A stretch of DNA of 63,469 nucleotides, the filler included, from Sanchytrium tribonematis (taxonomy: Eukaryota): NCBI GenBank assembly GCA_018985235.1. It is 7 parts of 7 records of this genome, joined end to end, with 100 filler letters (N's around TTAATTAATTAA, not from the genome) between each part and the next. Parts side by side here need not be neighbours in the genome. Positions count along the whole stretch, not along the records: positions 1 to 9,026 come from JADGIG010000345.1; positions 9,127 to 18,122 come from JADGIG010000346.1; positions 18,223 to 27,216 come from JADGIG010000347.1; positions 27,317 to 36,305 come from JADGIG010000348.1; positions 36,406 to 45,381 come from JADGIG010000349.1; positions 45,482 to 54,441 come from JADGIG010000350.1; positions 54,542 to 63,469 come from JADGIG010000351.1. One strand, written 5' to 3'. Below are positions 4,857-62,643 of the stretch, piece by piece. A program made the position numbers and the translations under genes. A model generated the notes under the pieces. The model searched no databases and was not told the origin of the DNA. It was given only the letters and a program-made list of their open reading frames with translations. Numbering within the stretch: position 1 is the first letter of the stretch; the number at the start of each line of letters is the position of its first letter.

Positions 4857-7800
4857 TCATGTTTTATTAGACTTTTCGAAATCTAGTTTTTCAATGTTTT
4901 CCACGGAAAAATCGGAATCTGATTGCTCTGATATCACATCACTCGTATTATCAATTTTTAAATTCTCAATGTCTCCATCAGAAGTTAAAATAGGTTGTTC
5001 TTTAATAGTGTTCCTCCTATCAAAAGTATCATCGAAAATGAGAGTATTGGCGACAACCAAGCTACTAGTTATTGATCGCTGTTCCAAAGTCGGTTTACCG
5101 AGTTTCTTACTTGTATTTCCGTCTAAAATGTTATCCATGTTGAGAGTGGTATTTTCAATTTGCGACTTTTCAGGAACAACAGATATTCTTGAATTTTTCT
5201 TGGAAATTTCGGACGAAATTTCCAAAACGGGTGCAATAGTGGACTCATTTTGAAGCTTTGTAACTCTCATGGCGTTGCTTGAAGTTCTTGTTAAATTATT
5301 TTCTGCTGAATCCCTTTGAACAACACTTGAGAGTTCAACATCAACTTTCTCAAATTTTGAAATGACACTTTTTGTTCGATCAGTAGAATTTTCAAGTATG
5401 ACTTTCTTTGGGACTGGATCAGATTTTTGAATTGGATTTGGTGCCACTTCTGAAGTCGTTTTATATGATTTCGCAATTGTATTATTTTTGGATAAAGTGT
5501 TGGTAGTCGAGTGATTTGCGTTCGTTTTTTGAGTTGATGGTGTAGCAATAAAAGATTTCCTTTGCTTTTTTCGAAATGCCTCGTTTTTGATATCTCTTTG
5601 CATCTGGACCAATATCACAACTATCAGAGCAATTGTTGAAAATATAACTATAATTGTCAAAGGATTTGAATAAGTAGATAAATATTTGGATTGAGTTGTG
5701 GCGAACACTGAAAACAAAATGCCGCAACTTAAAGTTACAATGAGACAAATTTGGCAAAATATGTCAATGATGGTATGCTCTTTCTTCTTGTAAGGCTTTG
5801 AATGGAGTAGGAAGCCCAAGTACGTAAAAGTTAATAGCATAATAAATATTGCCTGCAAAATTTGTAAATCATTCAAAAAGGCTTGTACAATTAGAATGAG
5901 ACACCTTAAAGACAAATGAATAGCAATGATATACTGCCCGGTACCTTTGAAATCACCCTTTTCTGAATTGAGCATTTGACTGGCAAAATTAGAAATTTTC
6001 AAATGTTTTGTTTGCGACTTCAAATAAAATAAAATTCCAAAATACATTGGAATTCCAATAACATATATAATTGTACCAAGTGCAAAGTAGCCTTCTTGCT
6101 TATTGTATTCATTGCTTCCACAGATCATTCCAGGATATTTCACCATGACTCGATTTACAGTTCCTGACTCTACGCAACTGAAAAAACCCAAGATCCAACT
6201 ACACAAGCTCACATAGATGACCTGTAGAAATATATGAAATATATTGATGCAGGTGTAAAATGTGGTCCCGATTGTTTTGATGGATGGTTTTAAAACTTTG
6301 AAATGGGGTCTGAATTTTCTAATTAAAAGTGCAAATGGATATCCGATAGGTGAAATCAATGTCAAAAGTATTAAAAATGCCAGGAAGAGTGGAGGAATCG
6401 CCATGAATACTTTCGCTTTCCAAAAATAATTGTAGCTTGAATTAACACATTCTGGTTTGGCCAAGTCTAAATTGAACGAAAATATACTTAAAGCATCAAA
6501 AAATTGAACGACTGTATCACTCCAGTTAAGAATGAGCGATCTGAAAACGTATATAATTTGAAAATATTGAAATAAGATGCCAAAAACGACCAAGAATGAC
6601 CCATACTTGATTTTTAAAAATAACGACCCCACTATTAATAGTGCTGCAGCAACACCAACCATAACGAATTCGAATGTACCCCATTGAGCCGGACATTTGA
6701 CGCAGCTCTGAAGTTGGGCATAATATTTCTCTGCACACCTGCCACATCCAACTAATATGAATAAAAAATACCATCTGGATTCGCATAACCTTCTGCACAC
6801 ACATTAGCTCCTTGGCAAGAGTCGGCATTAATGCATCTATTATATTCGTAAGAGTGGCCCATTTGAGTACTACTCAAATAGTAACCACGTTTAGCAGTAG
6901 GCATTGTGCCATTTTTGAAACAGTCAGCACCAAGTGGACAAGGTGCACAAAAATCGTATGTTTTCTGATCGCTATTTAATGCGTAGAACACATTGATAAA
7001 GTTAGTTCCACAATCAAATGAAATTTGGATGTCTATACTGGCAATCGGATAATTGAATGCTGTTTTATAATAGCCAATTCCGACATTTTGATCAAAATTT
7101 GCGTTGGTACTATTTAAATTTTCAAATGAATTGCTACTTGAAAAATTCACTTCCAATTTGAATTTGGTATCAAATATAGCAGCGTTGTCATAAAAACCAA
7201 CTCCACTATAAGTTTTGATTGTATTGTCCATTGGGATAAGCTGATTATTTATATACAAATATCCAATGTTTCTTCCATGAGGAGATACATTAAGAACTAG
7301 TGGGCTAGGCAAGTATTGACCAAGATTTGCATATGTCAAATTTTGGCTTATTGCAGGACTATTTAATGTATATAGATATTTTGGTATATTAATATAGCCA
7401 TTTCTTTTCAACAAATCAGAATCCTCGAGTTTCAATTTATAATCACCACTTGGTGATTTTTGAATTTGCCTCGTGTAGACATTTCCAAGAAAGCTGGGCG
7501 AGTCATACGAAGTTACATGCAAAACTCCGAGAATATTCCTGTTTTTGTATTTCAGATGATACAAAACATAGCAATCCTGCGATTGATTTGGCGTAATGTC
7601 AAAAATAAAGACTGAGTTTACACCAATTGTGCCACTCTCTCTTCCAGCTGAATCAATATACAATTTGCACTGTATAGCATTGTAAGCATTGTCTATTGAA
7701 ATAATTGCGGCGTCATTGAATTGAGATTTATATTCAGATGGGATTTGCAATGTACCAGTATTAATTGGAACAATGTAGTTTAGAAATGGATTAATTACTT

Positions 7801-8908
7801 TTTTATAAGAGCTATCCGGGACAACGATGCTATTAGCAGAATCGCCGTTTTGCTCTAGAATTAGATAATGTCCAAAGTTCTCAGAGGCAGGCACATTAAA
7901 TTTGAGATAAGTCGTATTGCTTACAACTTGATCTAGAGGATAAGAGCTATCTTGAAAGTCTCCCGCTTTTCGAATGGTCACACCGTGAGATCCTTTATTA
8001 TTTTTAAAACAAGTCTGATAAATATCATGGGCTTGGTTAAGGTTTTTCCCAAATACATTAATTGAAAAATAACCATCATTAATATAGCCAATGTAAGCGA
8101 AATCGATCTCTGTTGTGGAATCACACAACATATTGCTCTGTTTACACGAGCTTGGCACATTGTCTGATGGATTAAATGGATTAGAGCTTACATCACAATA
8201 CCCAATTGTATTTAAACTAATCATACCGTTAATTGTTGTGACAGCATTATTACTAATGTCAAAGGCGTCAAACGAGGAAGATCGTGTAGAAACATCAATG
8301 ACAGTTAAATAATTGTTGCTAATATTCAAACGTAAAATATTAGGCGCATTTATATAAAAAACTCCAGTCAAGTTGTTTCTGGACAAATCCAAGCTCAAAA
8401 GATTAGGTATTGGATGGTTTGAATCTCCCAATCCAATCTGACCACTTAGTTGATTATTTGATAGATCAACGTTGGTAGCAGAAAAAGGCACACCACCCTG
8501 TATGTTTCCAACAAAATTACTACTAGAGGCATTTAATATAACAATATTTGAGGGAAATGACATGACACTTAATTGAGTATTATTAACATACATTTCTGTT
8601 ATACTCCCCATAATTGGCACACTACCTATGATACTATTTCCACTAAGATCTATAACTTGTAAATTTGTTATAGATGTTAGATAACCGAGTGTTGTTGTTA
8701 GATTTCCCCTCAAAGCTCTGTCTGCCCAACGAATTTTTGTAATGTTTGATAAATTGCATTCGACCCCGACATCGATCGAGGTACTGCAGCAGTCTCCAAT
8801 CATTAAATTGTTCCCAAGGATGGGATTATTCAATGATCGGGCTACTTTTGATGCCAGTGAACAATCTTGCGGTGCTGTAAAAAGAAGCTCAAGCAATAGT
8901 AAGAACAT
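4857..8908 (-). CDS. Large membrane receptor: signal peptide, LRR ectodomain, Cys-rich repeats, multi-pass (7TM-like) region, S/T-rich tail; two exons (intron 6752-6771)
   Basis: ORFs 6752..8935 and 4857..6800 join in frame after removing 20-nt GTATTTTTTATTCATATTAG (NPD-V-GCGRC); likely ATG at 8908. Confidence 0.8.
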
Positions 8909-9026
8909 GTAAATATAGTTTGATGCGACTCTCACGTTTAATCGTACGGCCTCGAAAGTAGGTCATTATTTGTTTCATAAAAACGTTTTTATTGAAAATT
9001 CTGATTCAGAATCATTTGAATTGCAT

Positions 9027-9126
9027 NNNNNNNNNNNNNNNNNNNNNNNNNNNNNNNNNNNNNNNNNNNNTTAATTAATTAANNNNNNNNNNNNNNNNNN
9101 NNNNNNNNNNNNNNNNNNNNNNNNNN
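9027..9126. other. Artificial contig linker (N-TTAATTAATTAA-N)
   Basis: 100 nt of N with six-frame-stop spacer; same linker at 18123-18222, 27217-27316, 36306-36405, 45382-45481, 54442-54541. Confidence 0.98.
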
Positions 9127-9640: not shown

Positions 9641-12600
9641 ATGTCTATTAACAACTTCGACTCAGATATCACATCAACAGCATTCAAAATGAAGAAAAAG
9701 ATGATGTTTCGAAATTGGCAAAAATTCGCCATTAGATCCCCCCAGCAAACTTGAAAGTATTTCAAATCAAGTTGCTAAAAAATTTGTGTCTACAATCTTA
9801 AGCAGCTTAGATTTATCCAATTTACTTGTAGAACTAAAGAAAATGCACTTTACTTTGTATTGCCCAAGTGAGATTCATCATGCGGGATGTGAGATTAAGT
9901 TTATTAAATTGGACCATGGAATAGTCCATGCAGGATGTTCAGGTGGATTTACATTGCCGACGTCCACTAAACATAACGATGTAAAATTATGTCAAGAGTT
10001 GAAAAGAATGACAATGAGCAAATTAAAAGAATTGGTGTTAAAGAAAATTTTTAATCCCCTAGAGTTTCCTGATGCACAATATAACAACATTTTATATATT
10101 CAAACCAAACCGCTTAATCGATTGATGTCATTGAATCGAATTCTGAGCAATATTCCAAAATTGACTCTGAATAAAATTGATCTAATTGGAATTGGTAGAT
10201 CAGACGCTTTCAGTGGATTTAAAGACGTTCAAAATGCTTTGTCTATGAGTATAACTGTTCCTTATGTGCCTGATTGGAGTCAAATTGATGATACAGACAG
10301 GTTAGAATTGATTTTAAAATCAAATTATTTTGTGAAACAAAAGATCGATACTTTTGTCTTTAGTGACGATCTTGGTACTTCAAGAAATCAAATAGTATCT
10401 CTACTTAAATCCACCACATCATTGGATGTGCCCGCCATCACTCAAATGAAGCATTTTAAAACATAACAAAAATTGGTTTTTATCTCCTTTAGACAAACAG
10501 AGACTAGTGTAAATGATTGGGAGTCGTTGATTGGACTGTTCAGTAGTATCGGCATCAAAAAGATTGAGACTACTCATGAACGATGCTCCATTTTTGATGT
10601 CATTCAATTCTAAGATCCAATCGATGCATTTGGAAATGACTGAATATTTACCACCTCATTCTTATCATGGTAAAGAATTCTGCATCAGCAAGCTGCTTCT
10701 AGCTCAACAAATTGACAGAATTAAGCATTTGGCAATTGGATACATGATCAATTATCACAAATTTCAACTCGATAAAGTCAAATCACAATTAAGAGATAAG
10801 ATCATTCAACTTAAGACATCCAAAATTAAGATTGCAACAACAGAAGATACTCATATGAAGGATGTAGAAGATGACACCAAACTGCCACCAATCGTTCAGA
10901 TACTTGAAAAACCAATCAGATTTGGAATTAGCTGGATTATTATCAATGAGGATAACGAGGATCCTGATTTTGAGTCATCTCATTTGGATATCAAGTCAAA
11001 TATTGCTGTTTTAAAAGATGAATTAGAAAAATTATTACCAATCACACTAAATGGTGTAAAATTTGATTGCTTGACCAGAATTGCAAAAGATGGTACACAT
11101 GTGAATATCTCGCCAAATACGGTGCTCTACAACATTCGTGACTCGAGATTTATTGAAGCGACCATTATCTGCAAATCATCTCATTACAAAGTAATTCTAA
11201 CTAAATTAGGAGCAAGGTGGACAAAACCAACAATTTGATCAACAATAAATCAATTGTCTGATAATTCCCTTGCTCCTAAGCGTTTATTGGCTTCAAAATC
11301 TTTACAAATCAAAAAAGTCAAATTCGACTCCCCTTGGGTGACTTGTGATTGTAATTCAAAAACAGACAGCCCATCAATAAATACTTCATTTGATTCTTTA
11401 TCACTTACAATTAATCAGAACAGTATAACTAGTCCTGTCTCTTTTAAAGAGACACAAATCATGCTAAAGCGACTGAATGGAAAAACTGCCATGATATACA
11501 TCAACACACCCTGCTCGTACGAGACATTTGTCTCTCATATCCATTCTAAAGGCATCCCTTATTGTTCGAATCATCATAAACTCTTCTATGAATTTCATAA
11601 CATCTATCCAAATAGTATGATTACTTCTGACATGCGTCGTATTCAAATACAGCCCAAAATGCTTGGTGGTAGTGCTGATGATGAAGAAATATCCACTGAT
11701 TGTTCAATATTTGACAAATTAGATCAAATGAAGATTCTCTCCTATAACTGTCGTGGTGACAGAAATGGATCATTATCTAATGAATTAAAGTCATTTGTCT
11801 CTAGATATCACCCTACAATTCTTCATTTGACTAAATATCGAATATCGAATGAAATTCATCTACCAGGATACAACATTGTCAAATTTAAATATTTAAATGA
11901 GTGCGACCGACAGGCTATTTACGTACTATCTGGAATTGAGGATATATCCCTAGTTAGTGTAGACAGCCAATACTGTCACACCGTGAAAATATCAGGTAAT
12001 TGCTTCACCTTTGGATATCTTCCTCCAAGATTCAAAAACGGTTTAGAATTTCAAAGATCTCAGCTTCAAATAACATTTATTATTCGCTCCCTTTTCATTG
12101 GTGATTCAAATCAACGATGTCCATCCATCCAAAATGGACACGACTCGTCCGGCAGAAACTTTGAAAGTATGATGCGTGATAATTGCTATTCTCCTTCCAA
12201 TTCCCCAAATGAAAGCCTTATGCGTCGTGGAAACAACTGCTTCGACCAAGTCTGGTGCCATAATTCTATATCTGTGAGAGTTAGTCCAATTATTGTCCTA
12301 AAACTTGAAAATACGACCTCGGATCATTATCCAATAATGTTTCAATTTGATCTCTTGGAACCAGTCCATTTACTACGGACAGTAGATTATAACACTCTTA
12401 GACATGACATCATCATTCGAAGACAATTAGAACTAAGACTTAAATCCAAATTTGATGAATCCCTTCACAAAATCCCAAATTTAAATATCAATGAAGTGTG
12501 GAGTGAATTTAAACATATCGTGACTCAAACCAGCTTCAGGACACTTTCAGTGACTTCCTTCAGAGATGGTGATCCAACTGACTCTATTGGGGACAAATTG

Positions 12601-15220
12601 TTGATTTTAAATGTGAGGCGTAAAACACTGAAGAAGCAGCTTCAAAAACGAGGGAATTCGCAGACCCGAATAGTGAATTTACAAAATGGAATTAAAAATC
12701 TCAACAAACTAATCAAAATTAACCTGATGAGACAGAAAGACAATCAATTCAACAAATATCTTGATAAATTAGCAGACGACGAATTATCTGGTTACTTTGA
12801 ATTTTGTAAGTTGCGTCGTAATTTTTCCAAATCCAACAGCAATCTCAAAGCTGATCTACATCAATCCATTGAATACCACAAATCTCACTTTGAGAATGAT
12901 CATGATTCAATCTGGCCAGATATTTCTTTTAATAACTCACCTCAGATTATAAGAATAGCCAATGATATATTTACAGTAGAAAATGTTACCCATGCCCTTC
13001 GCACTACTAATAGTAGAAAGATAAGTGGGGACATTATTCCATCAATAATTTACAAATATCTACCAGGGAGTGGCTTTGAGTATTTACAACAGCTATTTAT
13101 TAAATGCTATCTTGAGTGCCGAGTCCCGGATGATTGGAATGTCAGTAGTGTCGTTGAAATATTCAAATCAGGCAATTCAATTGATCCAGGCCGATACAGG
13201 CCAATTTCTTTAATCAGCATCTGCTACAAAATTTATCAACAGATGCTGTATTATCACATTTACAAAGACCAAATCTTCCCATCCCTACGTCAACATGGCT
13301 TTGTTGGCAAGAGATCTTGCTCCACTCAAATACATTCAGTTTTATCCAAAATGCAACATTATCGAGAATCTCATGGATCAGTGCATTGTTTGGCTCTTGA
13401 CCTTTCAACAGCATTTGATTGTATGAAGCATAATGACATTTACAATTATCTTTTACCCATTTTGAATCCTCATGACACTAACTCGTGATCAAGTACGTAG
13501 CTTTTTAAAAAGATATAGAAAAGTGGCAAATTTGCCGCCGAAAGTAAAGCTCTTTAAGGGTAAAATTCAGGGTCGAGAAATGCTTCAAATAAAAAAGAAT
13601 GTTCAAGAGTTTCCAAAATATCTATTAGAGACCGATTGAATGGGTTAAAAGCGAATTATTCACGTTCAACTCTGTGGCGATTTATGAAAGAAAATGGAAT
13701 TGTAAAACGTCAAAGACCGACTGGAATTGTTTTTAAAGAACATCATAAAGTTGCGCGATATAATTTTGGCAAACAAATGCTTGCTGCGATTGATGAGGAT
13801 CCAGAATTTCACCGACGAATCATTTTTAGTGACGAGAAAATGGTTCGTTTGGCTGAATTTGACAGTGTAAAGTACTATTATTCCAATGTGAAGCGATGCG
13901 ATGTATTTTTGGCTAGATCTCAGAAGCTTATGAAAGGGTGCATGTTTTGGGCCTGTTTCTCCTTTCAAGGTAAAGGTCCATTAGCAACCATTGATGGTCG
14001 AATGAATGCAGCAGATTATCAAAATTTATTGCAAAATCAACTTGTGCCCAAATTGGAGGCATCTAAAGGTATTTTTGATCCTATTTTCATGCATGATAAT
14101 GCTCCGATTCATCGTGCAAAGTCCACTTCTGATTGGCTCATTTCTAAAGGAATCAAGAAATTAGAGTGGCCAGCGTGCTCGCCAGATCTTAATCCAATTG
14201 AGGATGTCTGGGCGCTGATACATAATAAGCTTTCAAAAATAGAGTTTCCAGGGTCTATTGACGAATTGGAAAATATTTTTATCAAAGAGTGGCAAAACTT
14301 TCCAGAAGAGACTTTAAAAAAATTGGCGGACTCTTTTAAAGAGCGTATGGTCAAAGTTGTGAGAAATAACGGTGAACTGATCAATAAAACTTACGTCAAG
14401 TAATTTTATTTTCTGTGTCAAACGGATGAGACAGAGGATATCACTACCCAACAAAAGTTCACTCTTAGACGGGATCAGACCAATGCAGTTGTTTATATGC
14501 GACGAGGGACACCTCAAGGTGGTACTCTATCGCCTCTTTTGTTCTCATTTATTCTTGATAAAATTTTAGCCAATTTACCAGAATCAAATATATATAGCAT
14601 ACATGTGTATGCTGACGATATCGTCATTTTATCTCATGATATAAACATATTGACGAGTACTGGACGTCACATTACTAATCTTCTTACTGATCATGGCTTT
14701 AAAGTCAATCAATCCAAATTTCAGCTAATTTCAACAATTGACAATTCTCCCATTACCCTCGAAAATGAGATCCTAATACAGTCACAGGCAACATTGAAGT
14801 ATTTGGGCATATTTATTAAATGCTCTGGTATTGATTATAGCACGGATATAAAGAATAAAGTGACCAAAGCGAAATTTGCTATTTCAACAATCAAATGGAC
14901 TAAAAATCTTATACAAATTAGAAATTCATATAATAAGTTCTATATTGGCGTTATAATTCCTCTAATGTGCTATGGTATAGAGAATTATTTGTTAGATGGA
15001 CTAAATCAGTTAGAATTACATCGCACCAAAATTATTCGTAAATTACATTCAAACAAATTCCGTTATTATCAGATGCATTACAATTATCTATCCATTCACA
15101 ATAACTACAGAATTAAACGATCTTGATCATTATAGAGACGTGTGCAATGGAGATCTTCCCGTCTAACGATCAAGACGAACTATTTACGATGCCTTAATGA
15201 GTCATTCAAAACGTAAAATA
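9641..15220 (+). mobile_element. Degenerate non-LTR (LINE-like) retrotransposon: ORF1-like region, ubiquitin-like domain, APE endonuclease, reverse transcriptase split by a Tc1 insertion
   Basis: APE motifs SYNCRG, GDSN, FDQVW, SDHYPI; RT motifs YRPISL, QHGFV, DLSTAFD, then after the insert GTPQGGTLSP, YADD, KYLG; premature stops at 10464, 11236, 15124; boundaries approximate. Confidence 0.85.
13481..14440 (+). mobile_element. Tc1/mariner (DD34E) transposase inserted in the LINE RT, 5'-truncated and frameshifted
   Basis: IIFSDEK, FMHDNAPIH, SPDLNPIEDVW with 34 residues between second D and E; HTH-like TRDQVRSFLKRY readable from 13481. Confidence 0.9.
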
Positions 15221-15336: not shown

Positions 15337-16175
15337 TTAATAAATTCTATTATTATTATTATTAATCCTGTCAATTTCATCAATGTTGGAAATCATCATT
15401 CCTAATATAAGAACTAAATTACCACCAAATAGAGTATTAATGTGATTTAACCCCAATTCTCTATCCATTTCCTCTGTTGATTCAGTCATTGTTGCTGGTA
15501 GATTGGGAGAAATTGGCAAAAATTCAATTGGTGGTAATGGCAAATTGTTTGTGATATTGATGAACTGTTGTCTCTGTAGACCCATTTTATCAAATAATGT
15601 AGTATTAGCAGCCTTTAAAATGGCATTGCTATCTTCATTTATCAATATTTGTTGAATATTTAAAACTTTTGTTGCTTCCGGAAGACAATCAGATCTAATC
15701 CATGCCCGCGTTATCATATTAGAATCAATAGAATCCCAGCTCATGTAAATAAATTTGGCTAATTCAAATGTTGATGGAGATGAGCATTGGATAGAATCAA
15801 ACAATGCGTTTTTCAATAATTCATTTTCATTTGTAGTAATAATTTCACCAAAATTCCTAGATTATTTACACTTTTAATAAGCAATAAAAGGGCTTTCTCA
15901 AGTTTGCAATACATTGGTGTTCTTTGGTGACCAGCAAATCCACTTAAACGAATGTCAGATGGCAATAAATGCTTTTCAATTCTAGTTTTGGGATTGGATT
16001 TGACAGTTAAAACCCCAATTTTTTTGAATGTACTTAAAGGAATGGCCAATACCTCTGCATAATATGCGTAATTGGTGTTTATTTTACATGCGTATATCAG
16101 AAAATAAGCAATCTTCATTTTTAATGCATCAGGATAATTTCTGTATTGATTTAATACGCTGTAATTTCTTCTCAA
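15337..16175 (-). mobile_element. Internally deleted pogo/Tigger (CENP-B-like) transposase relic
   Basis: HQRTPMYCKLEKALLLLIK resembles the CENP-B HTH; IYMSWDSIDSNMITRAW resembles the DDE_1 C-terminus; catalytic core absent. Confidence 0.6.
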
Positions 16176-16260: not shown

Positions 16261-17728
16261 CTATTGATTGTAATAGAGAGGGAATTCTGTATTGTACAGG
16301 GGTGTTTTAAAAAATAATTTATTCAAGGTTCCTGGTTCCGTGGATTTATGGGATGGGTTCAAGTTCCCAGGAACTGGAACCAGTTCCGCTAAAGTCGGTT
16401 CCGCTAAACCATTTTCACGTGTACATATATCATCTGCATAGCAGAGTATCCAAGTCCCATCTACGCAAAAATTGTAAATTGCAACAAGGCAAAAACAGAA
16501 TAATGTTGGAGAAATGGGGCAGCCCTGTGGTATGCCACTAGTAGTAATCACAGGACTTGCATGAAATTTATTGCTTTTAGGCTTTCTTAATTTTTGTTTG
16601 ATAGGTTTATCGTTACTAGAGATGTCTCGCTCATTTGATTTGCGTCTTCGGAATTTCCATGAAGCATCTCCTTGGGGTGTTTCATTTGATTGCATGCTTC
16701 ACAGCAGTGGTGCAACCTTTCTGTAATTAGAACAATTTCTTAAAACTTTTCAGTAACAAAACGAATCTGGCCCTGAATCCCATATTAACAAGATTATAAT
16801 AATGCTCTGATTCTTTAAAATCAGGACCAAAGTTCATGTCTTCAGCACTTTCCATGACCGGATTAAATTTTTCATCATCCGTGTCACTTGTACGTGAATT
16901 GAACTTGTCAATTTTATCTTTGAAAGCTAGTATAGCATCCAAGCTATTCAAATGAATCTTAGATTTTATTTTACTTCGAGCAGCAGATACGCAATATCCA
17001 TCTACCCAGACTAATCCCTGAGGGACTTCATTCTGTCATAAAAGTGCTCAAATTGTTCACCAGGTTTTTGGCGACCAGCTTCCCATTCCTTGAACATAGA
17101 GTCTAAAACACCCTTCGGTCTGTAAAGACGAATAACCTTCTTGTTCAATTTTTCATAAGGTACCTTTAAACCTTCTCTCGATGTGCTTGAATGCATGCTC
17201 AGGCATCAGTCTAATCATGACTAATTTCCTATACTTCTTATCCAAATTACACAAACTCCAATTTTCTGCACCAAGGGTCAATATCATTTCTTGGATGATA
17301 CTTATCTAAACTATTCTAAACTTCTTTTATCCAAGTCAGGACTCCTAATTCAGATTGCACAGGTGGTGGTGCAGTGTTATAGGTTAGACTGTTAGTCATT
17401 GATCCTCTTCTTGGCTGACTATAGTCACTTGAATCTCGTCGTGAGGGATTCGAACTGTTATCGTCATCTGATCCATTACTTTGTAGATCAGGGTCATCTC
17501 TGATAGTCGGACTTAGTTCTTTTGACTCTAAGTATCTTTCATTTAAGGCATTTTCTTCTGAATTGTGCATGCTTTCAGACTCAATTGCTTGCTCAAAGGG
17601 TGGTCTTAACGCAAGTCTTGGAGTTTCCGCAGGATCCCACGCTGATCCATTCTTTTCGCCACATTTGAGGAACGGCCTTCGACCTCTCCTGTTGGTGGAT
17701 TTATTTTCGAAGCAGGACTTTTTTCCAT
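16261..17728 (-). mobile_element. Fragmented retroelement: gag-like ORF pieces, degenerate CCHC knuckle, LINE-type RT fragment
   Basis: EWEAGRQKPGEQFEHFYDRMKSL (gag-like), CEACNQMKH, GIPQGCPISP...YADD; many stops and frameshifts. Confidence 0.65.
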
Positions 17729-18222
17729 TTTATTTTTAGTGTTTTTAATATTTTTTCGTGTTTAACTGATTTTTTGCCTGCAGAATCCTTTTAATTCAAG
17801 ACACCTTTTTCTTGATTTGTGTAAATATAGTCGAAAATTGATCAAAGCCTCATTGATTGACTTCATGAATTAAAAAATATTTTTTTAGACTAATGTACAC
17901 TCCGTTACTTAAGAATTTCAATTCTGCATAGTCTACCGCTTTCTCAATAATTAAATTGTCTAAATTTGTAAAAAAATTCTTCATGATATTCTTACTCATA
18001 TTCCTATTTTTTAATATTTATTAGAGACTTCAAACAAGGGGCTCTAATGAATAGGGGAAAGTTAGCCAGAAAAAATATTTCACTTTTTTTTAATAAAATT
18101 TCATGTTCTATTTTACTAGCTTNNNNNNNNNNNNNNNNNNNNNNNNNNNNNNNNNNNNNNNNNNNNTTAATTAATTAANNNNNNNNNNNNNNNNNNNNNN
18201 NNNNNNNNNNNNNNNNNNNNNN

Positions 18223-27216: not shown

Positions 27217-27316
27217 NNNNNNNNNNNNNNNNNNNNNNNNNNNNNNNNNNNNNNNNNNNNTTAATTAATTAANNNNNNNNNNNNNNNNNNNNNNNNNNNN
27301 NNNNNNNNNNNNNNNN

Positions 27317-27711: not shown

Positions 27712-27812
27712 CGATGTGTTCTGAGGGGCGCTGCTATTTATATTGAAATGGTGTCCATGTATTGGATCAAAATTAGAAGTTTCTAAAAGATGGCTAAAAT
27801 TGTCAAATCACA

Positions 27813-45381: not shown

Positions 45382-45481
45382 NNNNNNNNNNNNNNNNNNN
45401 NNNNNNNNNNNNNNNNNNNNNNNNNTTAATTAATTAANNNNNNNNNNNNNNNNNNNNNNNNNNNNNNNNNNNNNNNNNNNN

Positions 45482-46311: not shown

Positions 46312-48166
46312 TTACTTTAATTCGTCCAAACAATGTTTCTGATAATCAAAAATATCTGTATTGGGCCATACAGCACTGCTGCCATATTCCACATTAATAA
46401 TTTGTTTAAATGCATTTGGATCACTAAAAACAATATCAATAAATTTAACATCGTGACTGACGAGGACTAACGCACCTGTAAAATCACGTAATGCGTATGC
46501 CATGGCTTTCATGCTAATAATATCCAAATGATTTGACACTTCATCCATAATTAAGACATTTGGGACTTGTAAAGCTAAATAAATATAAATTACATAAACC
46601 AGCAAAAGAAACACGGGATTTTTGACCACCACTGAGTGTTTCAAGTGGCTGTAGGGCTAAATCACCTGTAATTCCAAAACTACCTAGAAATCTTCTGGCT
46701 TCTTCCATTGGTACATTTTTGAGGGATTGGATGGTTTCTACTGCATTTTTAGACATGTCAAGTGAATCAATGTGATGTTGTGAGAAATAACTGATTTTAG
46801 TACCACTATTTGTAATCACGTGACCATTCTGAGGATTTAATTGTTTCATTAATAATTTGAGAATAGTACTCTTTCCAGCACCATTTCTACCGACTAGCAC
46901 TGTTTTAGAGTTCATTCTAATCTGTAAATCCATTAAATTAACGATATTCTCCTTCACATTATCATATTTAAACACAACTTGCTTCATTTCAATCAAATTC
47001 AACTCTGAATCATCACCCGGACTTATAAAGTGATATGGCTTCACTTCCACATCCAATTCTGTTAATTCTGGCATTTCCACTTCTTTCATTTTCTCAATGA
47101 CTTTTAATTTGGATTGTGCTTGAGAAGATCTGGCAGCATTGGCTCTAAATTTATCAACAAATGCTTGTAAATGTGCTTTATCACGCTCATTATTCTCATA
47201 TTCTTTAATTTGTTGCTTGGTTAATTCCATTCTCGTCTTTTCAAATTGAGTGAAATTACCCTTGAAACATTTCAACTTGGCATTAAATAAATGATAAATA
47301 TCTGTCGCTATTTGATCTAAAAATGCAATATCGTGACTCACACAGACTACAGAACCAGGGAAACTTAAAAGATACTTTGTTAACCAACTAATTGCTGGAA
47401 TATCCAAGTGATTGGTGGGTTCATCTAATAAAAGTAAATCTGGCTGACTGAATAGAGCTTTAGCCAGTGCGACACGCATTTGCCATCCACCAGAGAATTG
47501 ATCTAATCCCCAATTGATTTGATCATGGTTAAATCCCAATCCGATTAAAAGTGACGCAGCACGTGATTCTGCAGTATCTACTTCTAAAACATCCATTTCT
47601 TCATAAATCTCATCTAATTCTTGAGTTTCTTCTGCAGTTAACTCTGTTTGGTCATTGAGTTCCTTTTCTCTATCCAATAAATAGTTTCTGACTTGGTCTG
47701 ATTTTAATACGATTTGCAAAATGGAATCTGAGGAGATTTGCAATTCTTGTTCTACGTATTTCACTTGAATGTGAAATGGAATATCAATTTCTTTATTGAC
47801 AATGGCATGTAAAATAGTAGATTTACCAGCACCATTCTTGCCAATTAAGCCATAACGACGACCATGAGTGATTTTTAATTCGCTGTCTTTTAAAACAGTC
47901 GTACCGTACAAATTCAATTGGATACTGTCTACTGAAATATCAAGAGACTCGGCTGTATCTTGTGCGAGATACTGCTCATACACTTGTTTATCAGATAGTC
48001 CAATTTTGTGCTGTTTGATTGCAGTTGTTTTTTGTTTTGCTGCTTTTTTGAGTTGCTTTTTCAATAATTTCTTATTTGCTTTTTCTAATTCCTTTTGATC
48101 TACAGCTGATTCCCGTAATTCAATGGATGAATTGCCTTTGATTTTGTTGCCGAATCCATCTTGCAT
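46312..48166 (-). CDS. ABC-F family ATPase (GCN20/ARB1-like); two exons (intron 46575-46593)
   Basis: Two GxNGAGKST Walker A motifs, FSGGWQMR, LDEPTNHLD; a 19-nt intron restores LSLQVPNVLIMDEVSNHLD. Confidence 0.9.
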
Positions 48167-49784: not shown

Positions 49785-51377
49785 ATGTTGATACTTGCTC
49801 TCATCTTTGCTGATCCAAATGATTGCTTGGCTTTACAACAATTTGCAATCAATCTCAACATGCCCTCTGTGAATCCAACTGTGATGAATGAAATTAATAC
49901 TCAGTGTTGTGTTGGTGTCGTGACTGGTGTTACTTGCAATTCAAATATCATCTCATCCATTAATTGGTCCAATTTTGGTTTAAATGGGACCATTACGATG
50001 AATTTACCATTTTTACTCAAGGATCTTCGACTAAGTAACAACGCCATCACTGGAACACTACCAAGCACAGGATATCCATCTAGTCTAACTAATCTGTGGT
50101 TAGATTCCAATTCTCTCTCTGGTCAAATTCCAAATTTCCCAAATTCACTTGGATTTCTCTCTTTAAATGCAAATTTGTTCAACAAACTACCTCAACAATG
50201 GCCCACTAGTCTGACATCTTTGTACTTGCATAACAACAAATTAAAAGAAGCATTCCCATCCAACTTGCCATCAATCTTGGAACAATTTGGCGCAGAAGGA
50301 AATCAATTGAATGGATCCATCACTTTCCCATCGAATATTATATACATGTACGTTGGAAATAATCAATTGACAGGTTTAATCCCCGTGATTCCAAATAATA
50401 TGATCAATTTTGATTTATTTTACAATTTATTTACTGGTTTCACAGCACCATTCCCAAATACGTTGAAAAGAATTAGCGCCGAATCCAATCAGCTCACTGG
50501 TGACATGCCATCCATTCCAGACAGTTTAACCGACTTGACTTTGTCACATAATCAATTAACTGGTAGTATTACCATGAAGCAACCCAAAACTCTGCTAATT
50601 GATTTTAATTCGATTCGGGATGTCATTATTTGGGATATTTCAAAGATTTTAAGCTGTGATGTAAGTAATAATCCATTAATGAGTAGCCAGTACATTCAAA
50701 ATATAACCTCAGTTTGTGTACACGATAATTTATATGCGTATGTTGAACCCGTGAGCCCAATTTCCAGTGCAACTACTAGTGCAACTAGTAATGCAGCGAA
50801 ATCATCTCTAGCAGTATTCTCTACAACAATTACAGCTAAGTCGTCTCTAGGAGTATCCTCCACTACATACACAACTATTACAGTAACTACTTTCGCTCAA
50901 AGTCTTTTTGCAACAACTTCTCCTCAAAATTCAAATTTATTGAAAAATGTTCCATTCGTCACATCTATGGAATCTGTAGACACAAATCATACAGCAATTC
51001 AAGTATCCACGATATCCAATGAGAATTACCCCAAGTCATCTACAATCTCAGTAGAAATATCAGAAAATATCCCAATTATTTCCAAAGTCACTATCCCCAC
51101 AAGAGTTTTCAGATTCCTCACAACTTCAATTACTCAAGAAAGTAGCAATATTCAATCCACATCAATATTCATCCTATCAATTTTAAATGCATCCACAGTA
51201 GCACTATACCAATCCAAAATAACACCATTTCAAGTCCATCTAAACACATTCTCATACGTAAGACTGTTTCTGAATACGATATTAGCATCTGTCATGTTTA
51301 CCAAAACTCCATGGAAGTCTTTGTTTGCAAATTCAAAGAAATCACCTCCAATATTGTCCATGACGACAAGTAAATAA
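49785..51377 (+). CDS. Surface LRR receptor-like protein
   Basis: Signal, DCLALQQFA..CC cap, LRRs, CDVSNNPL cap, S/T stalk, TM, KTPW tail. Confidence 0.85.
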   Translation: MLILALIFADPNDCLALQQFAINLNMPSVNPTVMNEINTQCCVGVVTGVTCNSNIISSINWSNFGLNGTITMNLPFLLKDLRLSNNAITGTLPSTGYPSSLTNLWLDSNSLSGQIPNFPNSLGFLSLNANLFNKLPQQWPTSLTSLYLHNNKLKEAFPSNLPSILEQFGAEGNQLNGSITFPSNIIYMYVGNNQLTGLIPVIPNNMINFDLFYNLFTGFTAPFPNTLKRISAESNQLTGDMPSIPDSLTDLTLSHNQLTGSITMKQPKTLLIDFNSIRDVIIWDISKILSCDVSNNPLMSSQYIQNITSVCVHDNLYAYVEPVSPISSATTSATSNAAKSSLAVFSTTITAKSSLGVSSTTYTTITVTTFAQSLFATTSPQNSNLLKNVPFVTSMESVDTNHTAIQVSTISNENYPKSSTISVEISENIPIISKVTIPTRVFRFLTTSITQESSNIQSTSIFILSILNASTVALYQSKITPFQVHLNTFSYVRLFLNTILASVMFTKTPWKSLFANSKKSPPILSMTTSK

Positions 51378-51504
51378 AATTTTGATTGAAATTCATGTCT
51401 TTCAAGCCACTCTGCTTTTATTGGGTGAATTTAGCCATTTTTTAATTTTGGCCATTCAAGAGAGCGACTTCAATTTTTAAAAACAGAGACCGCCCATCGC
51501 TTCA

Positions 51505-52881
51505 ATGTTATTATTTCATTCAATTTTTGCAATCAATGCAGATTGTCTTGCTTTGCAGCAATTTGCCATCAATCTCAACATGCCATCAGTGAATCCATCT
51601 GTGATGAATGAAATTAATAACCAGTGCTGTACTGGCACAATGACTGGAGTCGTATGCATAAGTGGCGTAATTTCCGTAATTAATTGGTGTAGTTTTGGTT
51701 TAAATGGGACAATAACACCAAATTTACCCAATTCTCTCCAAGAACTTTATCTAGGAAATAACGCAATTACTGGGCAATTACCTGCAACTGGGTATCCCTC
51801 TACACTTTCTATTGTTGTGTTAGACTATAATACAATCACCGGTCCTATTCCAATTTTACCCAATGCTGTTCAGAATCTGGTTTTGAATTTCAATTTGTTT
51901 AACAAGTTACCTCTCCAATGGTCAACTAGTTTATCAGTCTTGAAATTGTCTAGCAACAAATTCCAAGAGCCCTTCCCGTCTAATTTCCCATCTAGTTTAA
52001 ATACCCTGGAATTGGAGGGTAACTTTTTTAATAGCTCGATTGTATTTCCTCCAAACATCCAATACATGTCCGTTGGAAATAATTCTTTGACAGGCATCAT
52101 CCCAAGAATGCCCAATGGTTTAATTACCTTTGATTGTTTTTACAATTTCTTGACTGGTTTCACATTGCCATTTCCAAATTCATTGATGCGCATCAATGCA
52201 GACGCAAATCAACTAATTGGAGATGTTCCCTTATTTCCAGATGGTCTGCAAGATTTAAAATTAAGTAACAATCGTTTAACAGGTACTGTAAGATTGGCAA
52301 AACCAGTTAGTTTTCAAATTAATGGAAATTTTATTACAGATGTGGTTGTGTTGGATAAATCTAAAATTACTAGCTGTGATTTGAGCAACAATCCACTATT
52401 AAACAATACAAACATTCAAAATATCACATCTATATGCACGCACAACAATTTATTTGCACATTTCGCACTTGAAACTGTCTCTCTGACAACAAGTTTGAAT
52501 TCTGAATTGACGAATATGTTGGACAAGCGCAGCTCGAGTGTATCAACCAACTCAGAAATGGTCACATCAATCCAATCGGCTTTTGAACCTCAAATTACTT
52601 CCATCTTCATTCCTACTAGAGTCTTTAGATTTACAACATTGGGGACAACTACCTCCATAGCTACTATTTCACAATCCCCTATTAAATCGACTACTTCCAA
52701 AATAACATCAACTACTATGGTGCCATACAAATACCACGATAAACCATTTCAAATCAACTTAAATGTCTTTTCGTATGTTAAATTCGCATTGGATTTGTTA
52801 CTAATTGGTTTGATAATCGCCAAAACACCATGGAAATCCCTTTTCAAGGTTCCAAGACGGGTACATGTAATGACGCAATGA
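51505..52881 (+). CDS. Surface LRR receptor-like protein (tandem paralog)
   Basis: Same architecture; nearly identical N-cap to 49785; KTPWKSLF tail. Confidence 0.85.
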   Translation: MLLFHSIFAINADCLALQQFAINLNMPSVNPSVMNEINNQCCTGTMTGVVCISGVISVINWCSFGLNGTITPNLPNSLQELYLGNNAITGQLPATGYPSTLSIVVLDYNTITGPIPILPNAVQNLVLNFNLFNKLPLQWSTSLSVLKLSSNKFQEPFPSNFPSSLNTLELEGNFFNSSIVFPPNIQYMSVGNNSLTGIIPRMPNGLITFDCFYNFLTGFTLPFPNSLMRINADANQLIGDVPLFPDGLQDLKLSNNRLTGTVRLAKPVSFQINGNFITDVVVLDKSKITSCDLSNNPLLNNTNIQNITSICTHNNLFAHFALETVSLTTSLNSELTNMLDKRSSSVSTNSEMVTSIQSAFEPQITSIFIPTRVFRFTTLGTTTSIATISQSPIKSTTSKITSTTMVPYKYHDKPFQINLNVFSYVKFALDLLLIGLIIAKTPWKSLFKVPRRVHVMTQ

Positions 52882-53025
52882 GTTCTTTGTTATTTACAAT
52901 TTGGCGAATCGATGTTGACAGAAAATGATTGGTAAAATAAAAAGCCATTTTAGATGTTTCTAATTTTTCTCCAATCAAACTGGTGCGATCGACCCATAAA
53001 GAATTCAAATGACTCTAACAAATAA

Positions 53026-54441
53026 ATGTTATGGTCCCTAGTCTCTGCGCTAACAGACTGTCAGAACCTCAAGCAATTTGCAACCAATTTGAACATGAAT
53101 ACTGCAAATCAGACTATTATGAATCAAATCAATTCTGTTTGTTGTACGGGTGTCATTTATGGAGTGACATGTAATAATGGTAAAATTACAGTGATTAATT
53201 GGCCATCTGCTGGATTAAGTGGCAGATTTCAACCATATTTGCCAGTTTCTTTAGAAGAATTGTATTTGACAGATAATTCCATTTCTGGCTCATTGCCGAC
53301 CACCGGATACCCATCTACATTAAGAATACTCAATTTGAATATCAATGCGTTCACTGGTACGGTCCCACTACTCCCAAATTCAGTACAAGTCCTCGATTTA
53401 GGTAATAATTATTTCAACAAACTTGCCACTCAATTTCCAGCCAGTTTAATGGAATTGAGTCTCCTCAACAATGCATTTAGTGAACCATTACCCACCAATT
53501 GGCCAGTCAATCTCACATCTTACATGTTTGGTTACAATTCTTTCACAGGTCCCATCACTTATCCCCCTAAAGCCCAATTTGTAGGAATAGGACACAATTT
53601 ATTAAGTGGTACAGCCCCAGTTCTCCCAAATACAGCCACTCAATTCTATATTATGAATAATGCCATGACCAGTTTCGCACAACCCTTTCCAAGCACTTTA
53701 ATTGAATTAAAAGGAGGTTATAACGCATTTGCAGGTACCATCACACTCCCACCCAATTTACAGCTAGTCTTTTTACCATCCAACAAATTCACATCTCTCC
53801 CCTCTTTCCCATCCAGTTTATTACAAATCAATTTTGCCAATAATTTATTAAAAAATGGTCTCCCATCTCTCCCTCCCATGTTAAGTATGGGTATTTTCAG
53901 TAATAATCAATTAAATGGCAATTTACCACCCCTTCCAGATAGTTTAAATGATTTTGAAATTGCAAATAATCAATTTTCAGGGGTGTTACAAGTCAAACAA
54001 CCCGGTTCTTTACTCGTAAATAACAATCAATTTACAGATGTATTCATTTTAAATACATATTATTTGACTGTTTGTGATATGAGTAATAATCCATTGGCCA
54101 ATAATGCCAATAATGCAAATATGCTTTATGCGTGCAGCCATCCAAATACGAATATCTTGCCATTGGCTAGTAGTACAATCTATGCAAGTAATGCACCAAC
54201 TAGTGCACCAACTACTGCATCAGCTAGTTTGACAAGTAGTTTGACAAGTAGTTTAACAATTGGAAATGCTTTAACAAGTGCAGCAACTTCAAATATCTGG
54301 ATAACATCTTTAACAAGTTTGAAAATATCTACAAATGCGCCTATTACCACATTTACAGCTACTATAAATTCAATCACATCCCTAAAATCATCAGCAATTG
54401 CTTTCCAGGCAAATACATCTGTAATAATACCAAATACATTT
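53026..54441 (+). CDS. Surface LRR receptor-like protein (tandem paralog, 3'-partial)
   Basis: TDCQNLKQFA cap, LRRs, CDMSNNPL, S/T stalk running into the contig end. Confidence 0.85.
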
Positions 54442-54541
54442 NNNNNNNNNNNNNNNNNNNNNNNNNNNNNNNNNNNNNNNNNNNNTTAATTAATTAANNN
54501 NNNNNNNNNNNNNNNNNNNNNNNNNNNNNNNNNNNNNNNNN

Positions 54542-58572: not shown

Positions 58573-58619
58573 GATTTGGAATGGGATGTATGTCGACAGA
58601 ATGTCATTTGTTTATGTAC

Positions 58620-58795: not shown

Positions 58796-58804
58796 TTGCT
58801 CAAA

Positions 58805-59697: not shown

Positions 59698-59803
59698 CAG
59701 ATAATTGAGTGTATTTAGAATAAATGGGAATTTGAAATCAAGTAGACTTTATAGTAGAATCATTAGACACATCAGATGGAATGATTGGAGATTGGATTTG
59801 AAA

Positions 59804-60611
59804 ATGCTGATTGCCAATGAGAAATGGCAACAAATTGAGGGATTTACCCCTTTTAAACAACCAAAAATGATGACGATTGGGACCATTTGCAGATGGAAAA
59901 ACTGCAATCAAACATTCCAATCCCAAATAGAATGCCATAAACATTCTCGTAAAATCCATTTAATTAAAGAATCTAAAAAATGCGAGTGGCAAGATTGTTC
60001 AGTGGTTTGTAGTTCACGATGCAATTTATCCAACCATTTACTGAGTCATTTCAATATTATTAAAGCCAAATGTGGTAAATGTCAAATCAATTTCAAATGG
60101 AAAGGTATTTTCGATTAATTTAGGTGATTTTAACAAACATGTCAAGAAAGTACATCCAGAAATAGCAGAGAAAGAGTCTATTAATATGGTTAAATCAAAT
60201 AGTGGATTGATTCCACCCCCAATAGAATATTCCAATGATTTGGTGACTGAACAAAATTACCAATCTGTTTTGCCACCCATGCAATTATTAAATAGAGGTA
60301 TCAACGCGCAAAGCCAGCCAGAAAGAGGACGAGTCAAATCTACATATATGCAAGCACAGCAAATAGCTAGAAATAGAGAAATGGATTATCAAAAATATCA
60401 AAGATATCAATTGCCTACCCCTCCATCTCTTTCTATTCCATCCAGTAGGTCCACGACTCCCATAAATCACTCCAATAGCATCCCATATTCCACTACCCAA
60501 CATTTTGACCATTTTGATAATCATTCTAATGAACAATCTAATGAACATTCCAATGCACATTCTGAATTACCCATTAGATCCACTTTGGGGATCAATGATT
60601 TGATTAATTGA
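59804..60611 (+). CDS. Three-finger C2H2 transcription factor, PacC/Rim101-like; two exons (intron 60105-60123)
   Basis: CRWKNC...H, CEWQDC...H, CGKC...FKWK-GDFNKHVKKVH once a 19-nt intron is removed; start approximate. Confidence 0.75.
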
Positions 60612-60724
60612 ATTCAATAAATCACTCAAATCTTCTATTTGGCACGATTTGCCATTTTCAGCCCTATATTTGCCATGGCATTTCAATTTTGCCATTTTTA
60701 AACAGAACATCCCCCCAATTCATC

Positions 60725-61402
60725 ATGTTGTTAGTCTCCATTCTATTGGCATTGAATGAATATATGGCACCTAAACCCACAGATGTACGTGGTCCATGTC
60801 CATTTCTCAATTTATTAAGCAATCACGGCATTTTAAATAGAAGTGGAAGAGATTTAGATTTGGTGAAAATTAAAGAAGCAGTCGTACAAGAAGCCAATGT
60901 AGATGGATTCTTGATTGATCAAGTGTTGAATGTGGTCAAGCCATACGCAGCAGTGAGTGAAGAAGGCGTAGAAACCATCGATTGGTCTGTTTTAGGAAAA
61001 CATGATATTTTAGAATTTGACGTGTCTTTAACCCGTGAGGATGCTGCTGAAGGAGATCCAATCAATTTATCAAAAGCACTTTATGATCAATTGGTCGAAT
61101 TTGCTGAAGATGGCTATTTGACATTGGATGGAATCATCAAAGCTAGAAATAAGCGATTAAATCAATCTAGAATGAGAGATGGATTTGTAGAATTATCAAC
61201 AACTGCTAAAACTGCACATTTTGCAAATTCAGTGTTGATTGCTGGCACACTGGGAAGAGATTACAAGATTAAATTGGAGCATTTAGAAATCTTCTTGTTA
61301 GAGGAAAGATTTCCTGAGGATTGGGAAAGACGTCCTAAAATGTTGGGTAAATTGGAATTTGCAAATAGAGCATTACAATGCTGGAGAGGATATGACCAAT
61401 AA
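60725..61402 (+). CDS. Heme-thiolate peroxidase / unspecific peroxygenase (short type)
   Basis: DVRGPCPFLNLLSNHG proximal Cys motif; LEFDVSLTRED; EERFP. Confidence 0.85.
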   Translation: MLLVSILLALNEYMAPKPTDVRGPCPFLNLLSNHGILNRSGRDLDLVKIKEAVVQEANVDGFLIDQVLNVVKPYAAVSEEGVETIDWSVLGKHDILEFDVSLTREDAAEGDPINLSKALYDQLVEFAEDGYLTLDGIIKARNKRLNQSRMRDGFVELSTTAKTAHFANSVLIAGTLGRDYKIKLEHLEIFLLEERFPEDWERRPKMLGKLEFANRALQCWRGYDQ

Positions 61403-62643
61403 ATATTTCATAGAGTTAACTGTTATTCATTAGATGGAAATATTCCAAATAATTTACCAAATTCACTCACAACATTCAGAATTGACTCGAGTGCATTAAC
61501 TGGTACTATTCGGAATACATTACCATTTAATTTGGAGTTATTCGGTGTTAGTTTTAATCAATTAAGTGGTAATTTACCAATTTTTTCACCCAAATTAAAA
61601 CAAATTTATTTGACATTAAATGCATTAAGTGGTCCAATTCCATTCATGCTTCCAATCAATTTGACACTATTCCAAGCAGATTCCAACAAATTTAATGAGT
61701 CCCTTCCAAATTTCCCAAATTCTTTAAATGTTTTAAATTTGGGCAGTAATTTATTAATTGGGAATATTCCCAAGTTACCAAATGAATTACTACAATTATT
61801 TCTATATGATAATCTACTCTCTGGTTCATTAATGCAAAATTGGCCATTAAAATTGACTTCTTTAAATATAAAATTAAATGACTTAAATGGCACCTTTCCA
61901 TCACAGCCATTAAAACTATGTGATACCATTAATATTAGTTTTAATCGATTTAATGGATGTTTAAATGTCCCATTAATGTGTACATTTTGCACTTTGGCAT
62001 CTAATCAATTTCAAAATTTAATTATTTTCCAAAAACCACAAATTATGAATATAAGAGACAATCAATTTAACAATGTGAGTATAATAGATACGTCAAAATT
62101 GATTGGTTGTCAATTGGATAATAATCCACTGTTGAATGTCATTGGAAATCTCACATTTGCTTCAAAATGCACAAAATCAGGATTATTTGCAGATACGAGT
62201 AATTTTACATGTCCATTGATCTCCAATATAGTTACAACTGATGATTTGACAAAAACTACTGCATCTTTTACGACTGTACAAAGTGAAATGGAGCAGCCAT
62301 CAATTGTCAAAATCAAAACACGTATTTTTTTGATAATTTAGGGCAATTTTTTAATACAAAAGCCATTTCATTTGAATTCGATAGCACCATGTCAACGACG
62401 AAATCAATTGAAACCGACTATCTCGCCACAACCATATCCAAAAAATGGGATCGAACATTTGATACATTTAAACTTCAATTTAATATACTAATTGCTGCTA
62501 AATTAGCTATAAATATCTTAATATTAGGATATGTACTATATAAAACACCATTTGGAAGAAAGACAAAGAAGAGAAAGACGGAATTTAGTGGATATTCTTC
62601 ATATAATATTAAATTGACAAATCCATCAGACATCAGTCACTGA
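61403..62643 (+). pseudogene. Headless LRR receptor-like gene; two exons (intron 62322-62341)
   Basis: LRR frame opens right after the peroxygenase TAA with no ATG, signal or cap; a 20-nt intron joins the TM and KTPF tail. Confidence 0.65.

Follow-up and report, generated by a model that had tools for sequence, protein, structure and literature searches.

The stretch of DNA analysed here (the window), 63,469 nucleotides (nt) from Sanchytrium tribonematis, carries protein-coding genes interrupted by ten inserts of 19 or 20 nt that resemble spliceosomal introns, together with a gene for the SF3b subunit PHF5A that is interrupted by a putative canonical intron of 88 nt. Its G+C content is 34.3% (66% A+T), and that published for the S. 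tribonematis genome is 34.64% (PMC8371127). Seven contigs of ~9 kb make up the window, joined by six artificial linkers of the form N44-TTAATTAATTAA-N44 (9027-9126, 18123-18222, 27217-27316, 36306-36405, 45382-45481 and 54442-54541). As the contigs are unrelated, gene order across the linkers carries no meaning; the tiny introns occur on six of the seven.

Comparisons of the encoded proteins place the source organism among the sanchytrids, fungi that parasitise algae, in a group with Amoeboradix gromovi. The Vps1 protein encoded in the window is 79% identical to that of A. gromovi (EukProt EP00835), while its identity to those of other named fungi does not exceed 66%; the thiolase is 83% identical to its A. 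gromovi counterpart. In a thiolase tree built from 27 of 120 matches, picked by named taxon and all trimmed at the GHP motif, the window sequence clusters with A. gromovi and two ENA proteins, with a support of 100/100. Thiolase and PHF5A genes lie on one contig in A. gromovi, as they do in the window. A point against this placement is that Blastocladiomycota, published as the sister group, do not take that position in the single-gene thiolase tree. A metagenome scan of 78 stretches with an alignment of sanchytrid Vps1 yielded seven loci, none above 53% identity, and thus no DNA of a relative.

Ten inserts of 19-20 nt and the genes that carry them

All ten inserts begin with GT and finish with TAG; six are 19 nt long and four are 20 nt. 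They had been listed in an earlier reading of the DNA (the sequence-only reading), and each is present with the position, strand and length given there. The further proposal that every excision restores the frame also held, as removal fuses an upstream open frame of 133-906 codons to a downstream one of 43-630. When an insert is retained, a stop follows within 2-35 codons, in six cases inside the insert itself. Three inserts are in phase 0 and seven in phase 1.

Several inserts interrupt otherwise invariant motifs, as had been noticed, and at these sites the junctions are gap-free or correctly spaced. The 19-nt insert at 21099-21117 (minus strand, phase 0) lies just 5′ of DFG in the gene of a C1-domain protein kinase, and its junction is gap-free on the Pfam profiles Pkinase (138/139) and PK_Tyr_Ser-Thr (142/143). 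The 20-nt insert at 38045-38064 (plus strand, phase 1) lies within the GHP-LG motif of the thiolase, where position 81, a split codon and position 83 of Thiolase_C follow one another with no gap. In an ABC-F protein gene the 19-nt insert at 46575-46593 (minus strand, phase 1) falls in the interval from the signature motif to Walker B; the two exons are contiguous on ARB1, whose residue 443 corresponds to exon-1 residue 160 and residue 447 to exon-2 residue 1, and on the ABCF1 chain as well. Excision of the 19-nt insert at 60105-60123 (plus strand, phase 1) regenerates the C-x2-C-x12-H-x4-H spacing of a C2H2 zinc finger, and its retention gives an internal stop. The 19-nt insert at 30070-30088 (plus strand, phase 1) is located in a variable linker of Vps1/dynamin, with the GED domain encoded in exon 2, and three public Vps1 proteins (P0003-P0005) read through the site into exon-2 sequence. 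The 19-nt insert at 40831-40849 (plus strand, phase 0) interrupts a divergent APC1-like gene, and the related protein P0246 (45% identity) ends at this site in a tail that starts with V. The APC1 label comes from weak matches, one of which bears Apc1 Pfam domains. This gene (38245-41161, plus strand) encodes 965 amino acids (aa) when spliced and has no Pfam match; the weakly matching APC1 proteins reach ~2,100 aa.

At the remaining four sites the assignment is based on long open frames, the shared motif and an anchor-like exon 2. The 20-nt insert at 6752-6771 (minus strand, phase 1) lies in a gene for a large leucine-rich repeat (LRR), Cys-rich, multi-membrane protein (4857-8962), flanked by 730 and 630 open codons, and that at 24693-24712 (plus strand, 20 nt, phase 0) lies in a gene without a Pfam family, flanked by 164 and 44 open codons, whose second exon encodes a hydrophobic anchor; retention produces an internal stop in both. 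Two further inserts interrupt genes for LRR or LRR-like surface proteins. One, at 32835-32853 (minus strand, 19 nt, phase 1), is flanked by 456 and 89 open codons, and the membrane-anchor-like end encoded by exon 2 resembles that of intronless paralogs in the window; the other, at 62322-62341 (plus strand, 20 nt, phase 1), is flanked by 306 and 99, and exon 2 ends in an anchor-like segment as in the paralogs at 49785 and 51481.

The excess of such inserts at these two lengths was assessed by an untrained scan for GT..AG segments of 12-45 nt with at least 75% A+T and at least 40 open codons on each side. It returned six matches at 19 nt and five at 20 nt, or 11 observed against 1.7 expected (Poisson P ~2e-6, or ~6e-5 when corrected for the choice of length). 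When the introns were cut out, a rescan gave none at 19 nt and one at 20 nt, with a background of 29 matches over 34 lengths. The sole 20-nt background match sits near the start of a transposase frame.

The inserts can be compared with the known classes of intron. GT...AG ends are found in all ten and in the 88-nt intron. The protein is restored exactly and gap-free for the kinase, thiolase, ABC-F protein and PHF5A, by motif spacing for the zinc finger, and by comparison with relatives for Vps1. Introns of the U12 type have an extended conserved donor and branch consensus. The donors here read GTA followed by T-rich sequence, with no common extended motif. Introner-type mobile introns occur as near-identical copies, often with a target-site duplication; the ten inserts are differing low-complexity sequences with terminal repeats of 0-2 nt. 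Ten of the 11 introns noted in the window fall at 19-20 nt, in keeping with the narrow range at or below ~21 nt that characterises ultra-short systems. Taken as sequence evidence, these properties make it highly probable that the ten inserts are spliceosomal introns.

The tiny introns also share a motif beyond their ends. A is found at +3 and T at +5 and +6 in nine of ten each, while +5 is never G. Towards the 3′ end, T at -8 and A at -6 are each present in nine and T at -3 in all ten, giving the pattern T(-8)-N-A(-6)-TTTAG, with T-N-A-T at -8 to -5 in nine. The A at -6, which would be intron position 14 or 15, is the likely branch point, in agreement with the sequence-only reading; if so, donor and branch are only 13-14 nt apart. 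The claim that the introns contain no CTAAC branch box is literally true of the ten, but it overlooks that T-N-A-T is the degenerate core of the usual branch motif, WCTRAY (PMC2483917). A branch at -6 also occurs in Yarrowia lipolytica, with 2 nt between branch point and AG (PMC2483917), and in Stentor, at position 10 of 15 or 11 of 16 (PMC9505925).

Introns of relatives were read from the tails of public proteins that had been called without an intron model. In the sanchytrid genome paper the string 'splic' is absent, 'intron' appears in the references only, and open reading frames were called on genomic contigs (PMC8371127). Public records are indeed truncated at the introns (P0001, 550 aa; P0125, 363 aa), as the prediction that gene callers would split these genes implies. 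Because the caller models no introns, however, the truncations are no evidence that short length as such defeats gene callers. At the thiolase site, P0127 stops six residues past GHP, like the window's own record, and fits a 20-nt intron; P0128 and P0245 fit 19 nt, and their five further residues and stop match the frameshifted exon 2. Among 120 thiolases, 111 match the uninterrupted motif pattern, three truncated ones are sanchytrid-like, and six end normally. The A. gromovi thiolase, P0126, is uninterrupted at the site. In Vps1, the tail of P0005 agrees with an intron of 20 nt. The break in all three of P0003, P0004 and P0005 follows ETEVI, a site that is intronless in the window, and the 30070 intron is absent from each. 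These differences point to intron gain or loss within sanchytrids. That the Vps1 intron between ETEVI and K is ancestral was expected and found no support; the nearby intron of L003 lies at a different codon. Sites shared with relatives, with differing insert sequences, make sequencing or assembly error very unlikely, and the comparison suggests that short intron length is a trait of the lineage.

Several observations weigh against the interpretation of the inserts as a uniform class of 19-20-nt introns. Homologues or motifs bear on the junction at six of the ten sites. The 6752 intron has no A at -6 and instead carries As at -7 and -5. A score trained on the ten inserts yields false positives in intact frames (such as 6467-6487, 20141-20159 and 46657-46683). 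The frame test does not see introns of 18 or 21 nt that contain no stop, so that the length range may be wider. Among the relatives, the tail-derived lengths also allow more than 20 nt (P0127 and P0005) or 38 nt and more (P0128), and the tails of P0003, P0004 and P0246 show a break and set no intron length. Positions are not all shared, since the thiolase intron is missing from A. gromovi and that at 30070 from the three Vps1 relatives.

Candidates of 19-21 nt picked by the motif score at 6467-6487, 11191-11209, 15001-15019, 15402-15422, 20141-20159, 21314-21334 and 34213-34233 were not accepted, since each is antisense, sits within an intact frame or yields no long frame. Two of them (6467-6487 and 15402-15422, both minus strand) are in-frame 21-nt candidates that score like the tiny introns.

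The 88-nt intron of PHF5A and other genes of the window

The list of ten was sound as far as it went and yet incomplete, for it missed an 88-nt intron with a CTAAC box at 41241-41328 (minus strand), on the contig that also bears the tiny introns at 38045 and 40831. It interrupts, in phase 0, the gene for PHF5A/Rds3, a subunit of SF3b (41172-41574, minus strand), whose spliced product of 104 aa matches Pfam PHF5 over residues 2-81 and 82-103 and human PHF5A with an E value of 8e-26. The intron has a GTAAGT donor, an ACTAAC box and a TAG acceptor, and its 3′ end reads ACTAAC-GTAG, which puts the likely branch A (41246) at the same -6 offset as in the tiny introns. An alternative 154-nt version was rejected because it removes part of the Pfam match.

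Two relatives, P0121 and the A. gromovi protein P0124, break at the codon of this intron, and P0122 is uninterrupted. The read-through tail of P0124 demands an intron of at least 66 nt. When its 21 residues were back-translated onto the window intron, the score was 36.8, which none of 1000 shuffles reached (maximum 26.1); among 1519 window bins the runner-up scored 22.0.

The conserved part of the intron looks like a box C/D small nucleolar RNA (snoRNA). The predicted snoRNA occupies 41257-41319 (minus strand) and is conserved in the A. gromovi tail. Its boxes are in the order C, D′, C′, D (ATGAGGA, CTGC, TGATGA, CTGA), with box C at 41314-41308 (one mismatch), the guide at 41304-41294, D′ at 41293-41290, C′ at 41286-41280 and box D at 41262-41259. 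The A. gromovi tail permits CTGA at D′ and TGATGA at C′. The first guide and its box agree with the Rfam consensus of SNORD95 in 14 of 15 letters (E 2.8), and 16 of the 20 weak Rfam matches of the intron are C/D families. SNORD95 guides methylation of large-subunit rRNA. The snoRNA would probably be the reason why this intron stays long. Weighing against the assignment, box C deviates from the canonical form in the window and has no possible canonical version in A. gromovi, the intron reaches the gathering score of no Rfam family (best E 0.13), and its fold is no better than that of shuffles (z -0.26). A search of the whole window at the Rfam gathering score gave no match, and hence no small nuclear RNA (snRNA). 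Literature titles yielded nothing relevant on PHF5A with a snoRNA, and the guide letters gave unrelated papers only.

The PHF5A protein itself departs from the human sequence. In all four sanchytrid-like sequences human Y36 is replaced by F and C26 by H; Y36 we take to be a residue of the branch pocket. PHF5A lines the pocket for the branch A, and that surface is identical in yeast and human (PMC10798247). Hypothetically, these changes may be linked to the tiny introns. The window protein (41329-41574, minus strand) also departs from human PHF5A at K25 and R38.

Other genes in the window include an expanded LRR-like family (27265-27807, 32569-34222, 49785-54489, 61403-62643 and 4857-8962), with three tandem copies at 49785-54489. 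Its proteins have a Cys-rich N-terminus, a Ser/Thr-rich stalk and a C-terminal membrane-anchor-like segment, and a tiny intron in the stalk is present in some copies and absent from others. A gene for an M35 metallo-endopeptidase (34544-35509, minus strand) and one for a family-2 heme peroxidase (60608-61402, plus strand) are intronless, and both products are possibly secreted. The frame at 515-1867 (plus strand) encodes a protein with multiple membrane segments and a weak C-terminal RGS domain. On the contig without a tiny intron, a reverse transcriptase domain (11239-15126, plus strand; Pfam RVT_1 5-91 and 103-203) is split by a same-strand frame for a Tc1/mariner-type DDE transposase (13564-14403), at which no terminal inverted repeats were found, and a second reverse transcriptase fragment lies at 16261-16698 (minus strand).

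Recognition of the tiny introns and alternative explanations

The inserts, their effect on the frame, their common motif, protein junctions that close without a gap at several sites and the sites shared with relatives are observed; from them we infer splicing itself, where the branch lies and how the introns are recognised. The ten inserts are very likely U2-type introns excised by the major spliceosome. The annotation of A. gromovi contains PRP8, BRR2, SF3B1, the SF3b subunit K12829, PRP21, SF3a60, U2AF (K12836), SNU13, CRNKL1 and CWC25 (PMC8371127 supplement). Human splicing requires ~50 nt from donor to branch in extracts (PMC6692369). Where only 13-14 nt are available, simultaneous binding of U1 and U2 of the usual kind is unlikely, and donor and branch would likely be read sequentially or by a compacted complex. 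Recognition would then probably depend on a fixed geometry, comprising the GTA donor, the A at -6 and the short distance between them, rather than on long base-paired signals, with fixed spacing probably substituting for the +5 G and the CTAAC box that have been lost. The same spliceosome would also process the PHF5A intron through its full GTAAGT and ACTAAC signals, such signals being retained where spacing cannot define an intron. The tiny introns likely arose by deletion-biased shrinkage to a lower limit, independently of those of ciliates, mikrocytids, nucleomorphs and microsporidia. We regard this account, in which a fixed geometry serves the tiny introns beside a long intron bearing a snoRNA, as probable.

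A more elaborate version would give the spliceosome two modes: a geometry mode for introns of 19-20 nt, which lack a signal for U1 or U2 pairing, and a canonical mode for rare introns that bear a snoRNA, one of them in PHF5A itself. Sanchytrid introns would be the shortest typical ones in fungi and animals, geometry would be enabled in part by changes in the PHF5A pocket (Y36F, C26H and those of the R38D/E/M type), and the supply of PHF5A would depend, as a feedback loop, on canonical splicing and be coupled to snoRNA output. Taken as a whole, this version is doubtful.

The sequence-only reading had favoured a spliceosome that purely measures length. In its strict form, a spliceosome rewired, for instance, by loss of U1 or by altered U6 or U2 would act as a molecular caliper and cut any A+U-rich GU..AG stretch of 19-20 nt, leaving the PHF5A intron as a poorly spliced relic or to a separate route. 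A caliper has been suggested for nucleomorph introns, which measure 18-21 nt (PMC6009652), and it would suit both the restriction of ten introns to just two lengths and the absence of +5 G, which is also impossible in the tails of six distinct relatives when these are read as tiny introns; the F at Y36 and H at C26 of sanchytrid PHF5A could likewise reflect such rewiring. A pure ruler would have no need of the T-N-A-T that nine of ten introns keep, however, and Stentor, with introns shorter still, retains the complete set of five snRNAs, the recognition motifs of U1, U2 and U6 being standard (PMC9505925). The PHF5A intron retains a canonical donor, branch and -6 spacing in a gene for a spliceosomal protein, and is long in A. 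gromovi too. The coexistence of an 88-nt canonical intron with the tiny ones on one contig contradicts a strict caliper and indicates that length alone is not the rule. We consider the caliper unlikely.

Much less credible are explanations that dispense with the spliceosome. The distance of 13-14 nt from donor to branch, far under the ~50 nt of human extracts (PMC6692369), might suggest removal or bypass by an endonuclease-ligase route, by excision at the DNA level or by ribosomal hopping. Such routes are very improbable given that the GT and AG ends are invariant, a branch-like A is present, terminal direct repeats never exceed 2 nt, the inserts have no common sequence, the lineage retains spliceosomal genes and spliceosomal introns of 15-17 nt have transcript support elsewhere (PMC10245619). 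The explanation to which we give least credence is that sequencing or assembly errors, or lesions in decaying genes, mimic introns. The assembly is broken into ~9-kb contigs, and with 66% A+T, A+T-rich GT..AG stretches do arise by chance, as the 29 background matches illustrate. This explanation is already largely refuted by the excess at exactly 19-20 nt, by independent records that break at the same codons with differing sequence, and by the in-frame stops within six inserts. Moreover, a mistake of one or two bases would leave six additional residues within motifs, and the profiles show none.

Comparison with other short-intron systems

The predicted likeness in size to nucleomorph introns was confirmed: those of the nucleomorph of the chlorarachniophyte Bigelowiella natans span 18-21 nt and share with the tiny introns a narrow range, A+U richness and GU-AG ends (PMC6009652). 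In the nucleomorph, intron density is 3.1 per gene and no branch A is discernible, whereas the sanchytrid window has a low density, 11 introns in 63 kb, and a conserved A at -6. The sanchytrid introns also reside in an ordinary fungal nucleus, with one long canonical intron alongside. Introns of Stentor coeruleus (15-16 nt; PMC9505925) share the GUA start, a U-rich body without a branch consensus, the A at -6 and, in the commonest example, the UAG end. They are four nt shorter and belong to a free-living heterotrich ciliate, an unrelated lineage, so that the likeness is convergent. Mikrocytos mackini resembles the sanchytrid in having two adjacent intron lengths (16-17 nt), a parasitic habit and few introns, but its intron sequence is highly conserved and its spliceosome is reduced to 17-19 proteins, U2, U4 and U6 being the only snRNAs reported (PMC10245619). 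The sanchytrid sequences are degenerate, and the A. gromovi annotation suggests a fuller set of proteins.

Microsporidia provide the closest architectural parallel, as fungus-related parasites with tiny introns and rare long ones that have strong branch signals and perhaps C/D RNA. Encephalitozoon cuniculi introns measure 22-76 nt (PMC3629993), and long conserved microsporidian introns with possible C/D motifs occur beside ones of ~25 nt (PMC6349667). The short microsporidian introns differ in being longer, with strict donor and branch motifs, and in being spliced less than 20% of the time. Their long introns lie in the genes for poly(A)-binding protein and S23 and not PHF5A, with no recognised guide, and sanchytrids form a branch separate from microsporidia. 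Intron-poor fungi keep introns that host snoRNAs (RPL7/snR59 and NOG2/snR191; PMC8476143), the same reason for retention as is proposed here; the sanchytrid host gene, however, encodes a spliceosomal subunit, and what is retained, among introns that are otherwise tiny, is its length together with strong signals. Myxozoans and dicyemids (median 22 bp; PMC13644364) are parasitic opisthokonts with introns below 30 nt and reduced signals, but their range is broader and the putative branch A shifts away from the AG as introns lengthen, where that of the sanchytrid stays at -6. That 2026 paper names microsporidia as the sole fungal exception. In titles and abstracts, with most subscription journals outside the coverage, no report was found of sanchytrid introns or of fungal introns of 19-20 nt. 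The introns described here would be shorter than any fungal intron found in the literature surveyed, in which the shortest is one of 22 nt in E. cuniculi (PMC3629993).

Ultra-short spliceosomal introns are thus already known, and what this case would add is an independent fungal origin at the short extreme and an architecture of two classes. Because public sanchytrid proteins are cut at introns, inventories of gene loss published for the phylum may call for re-examination. The known cases of splicing below ~21 nt, in ciliates, mikrocytids and nucleomorphs, are distant from yeast and human. In sanchytrids, each residue of the snRNAs and proteins could be set against yeast structures and Blastocladiomycota. 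The PHF5A intron would serve as a built-in control: measured against it, shrinkage drops the +5 G and CTAAC and keeps the predicted branch A at -6.

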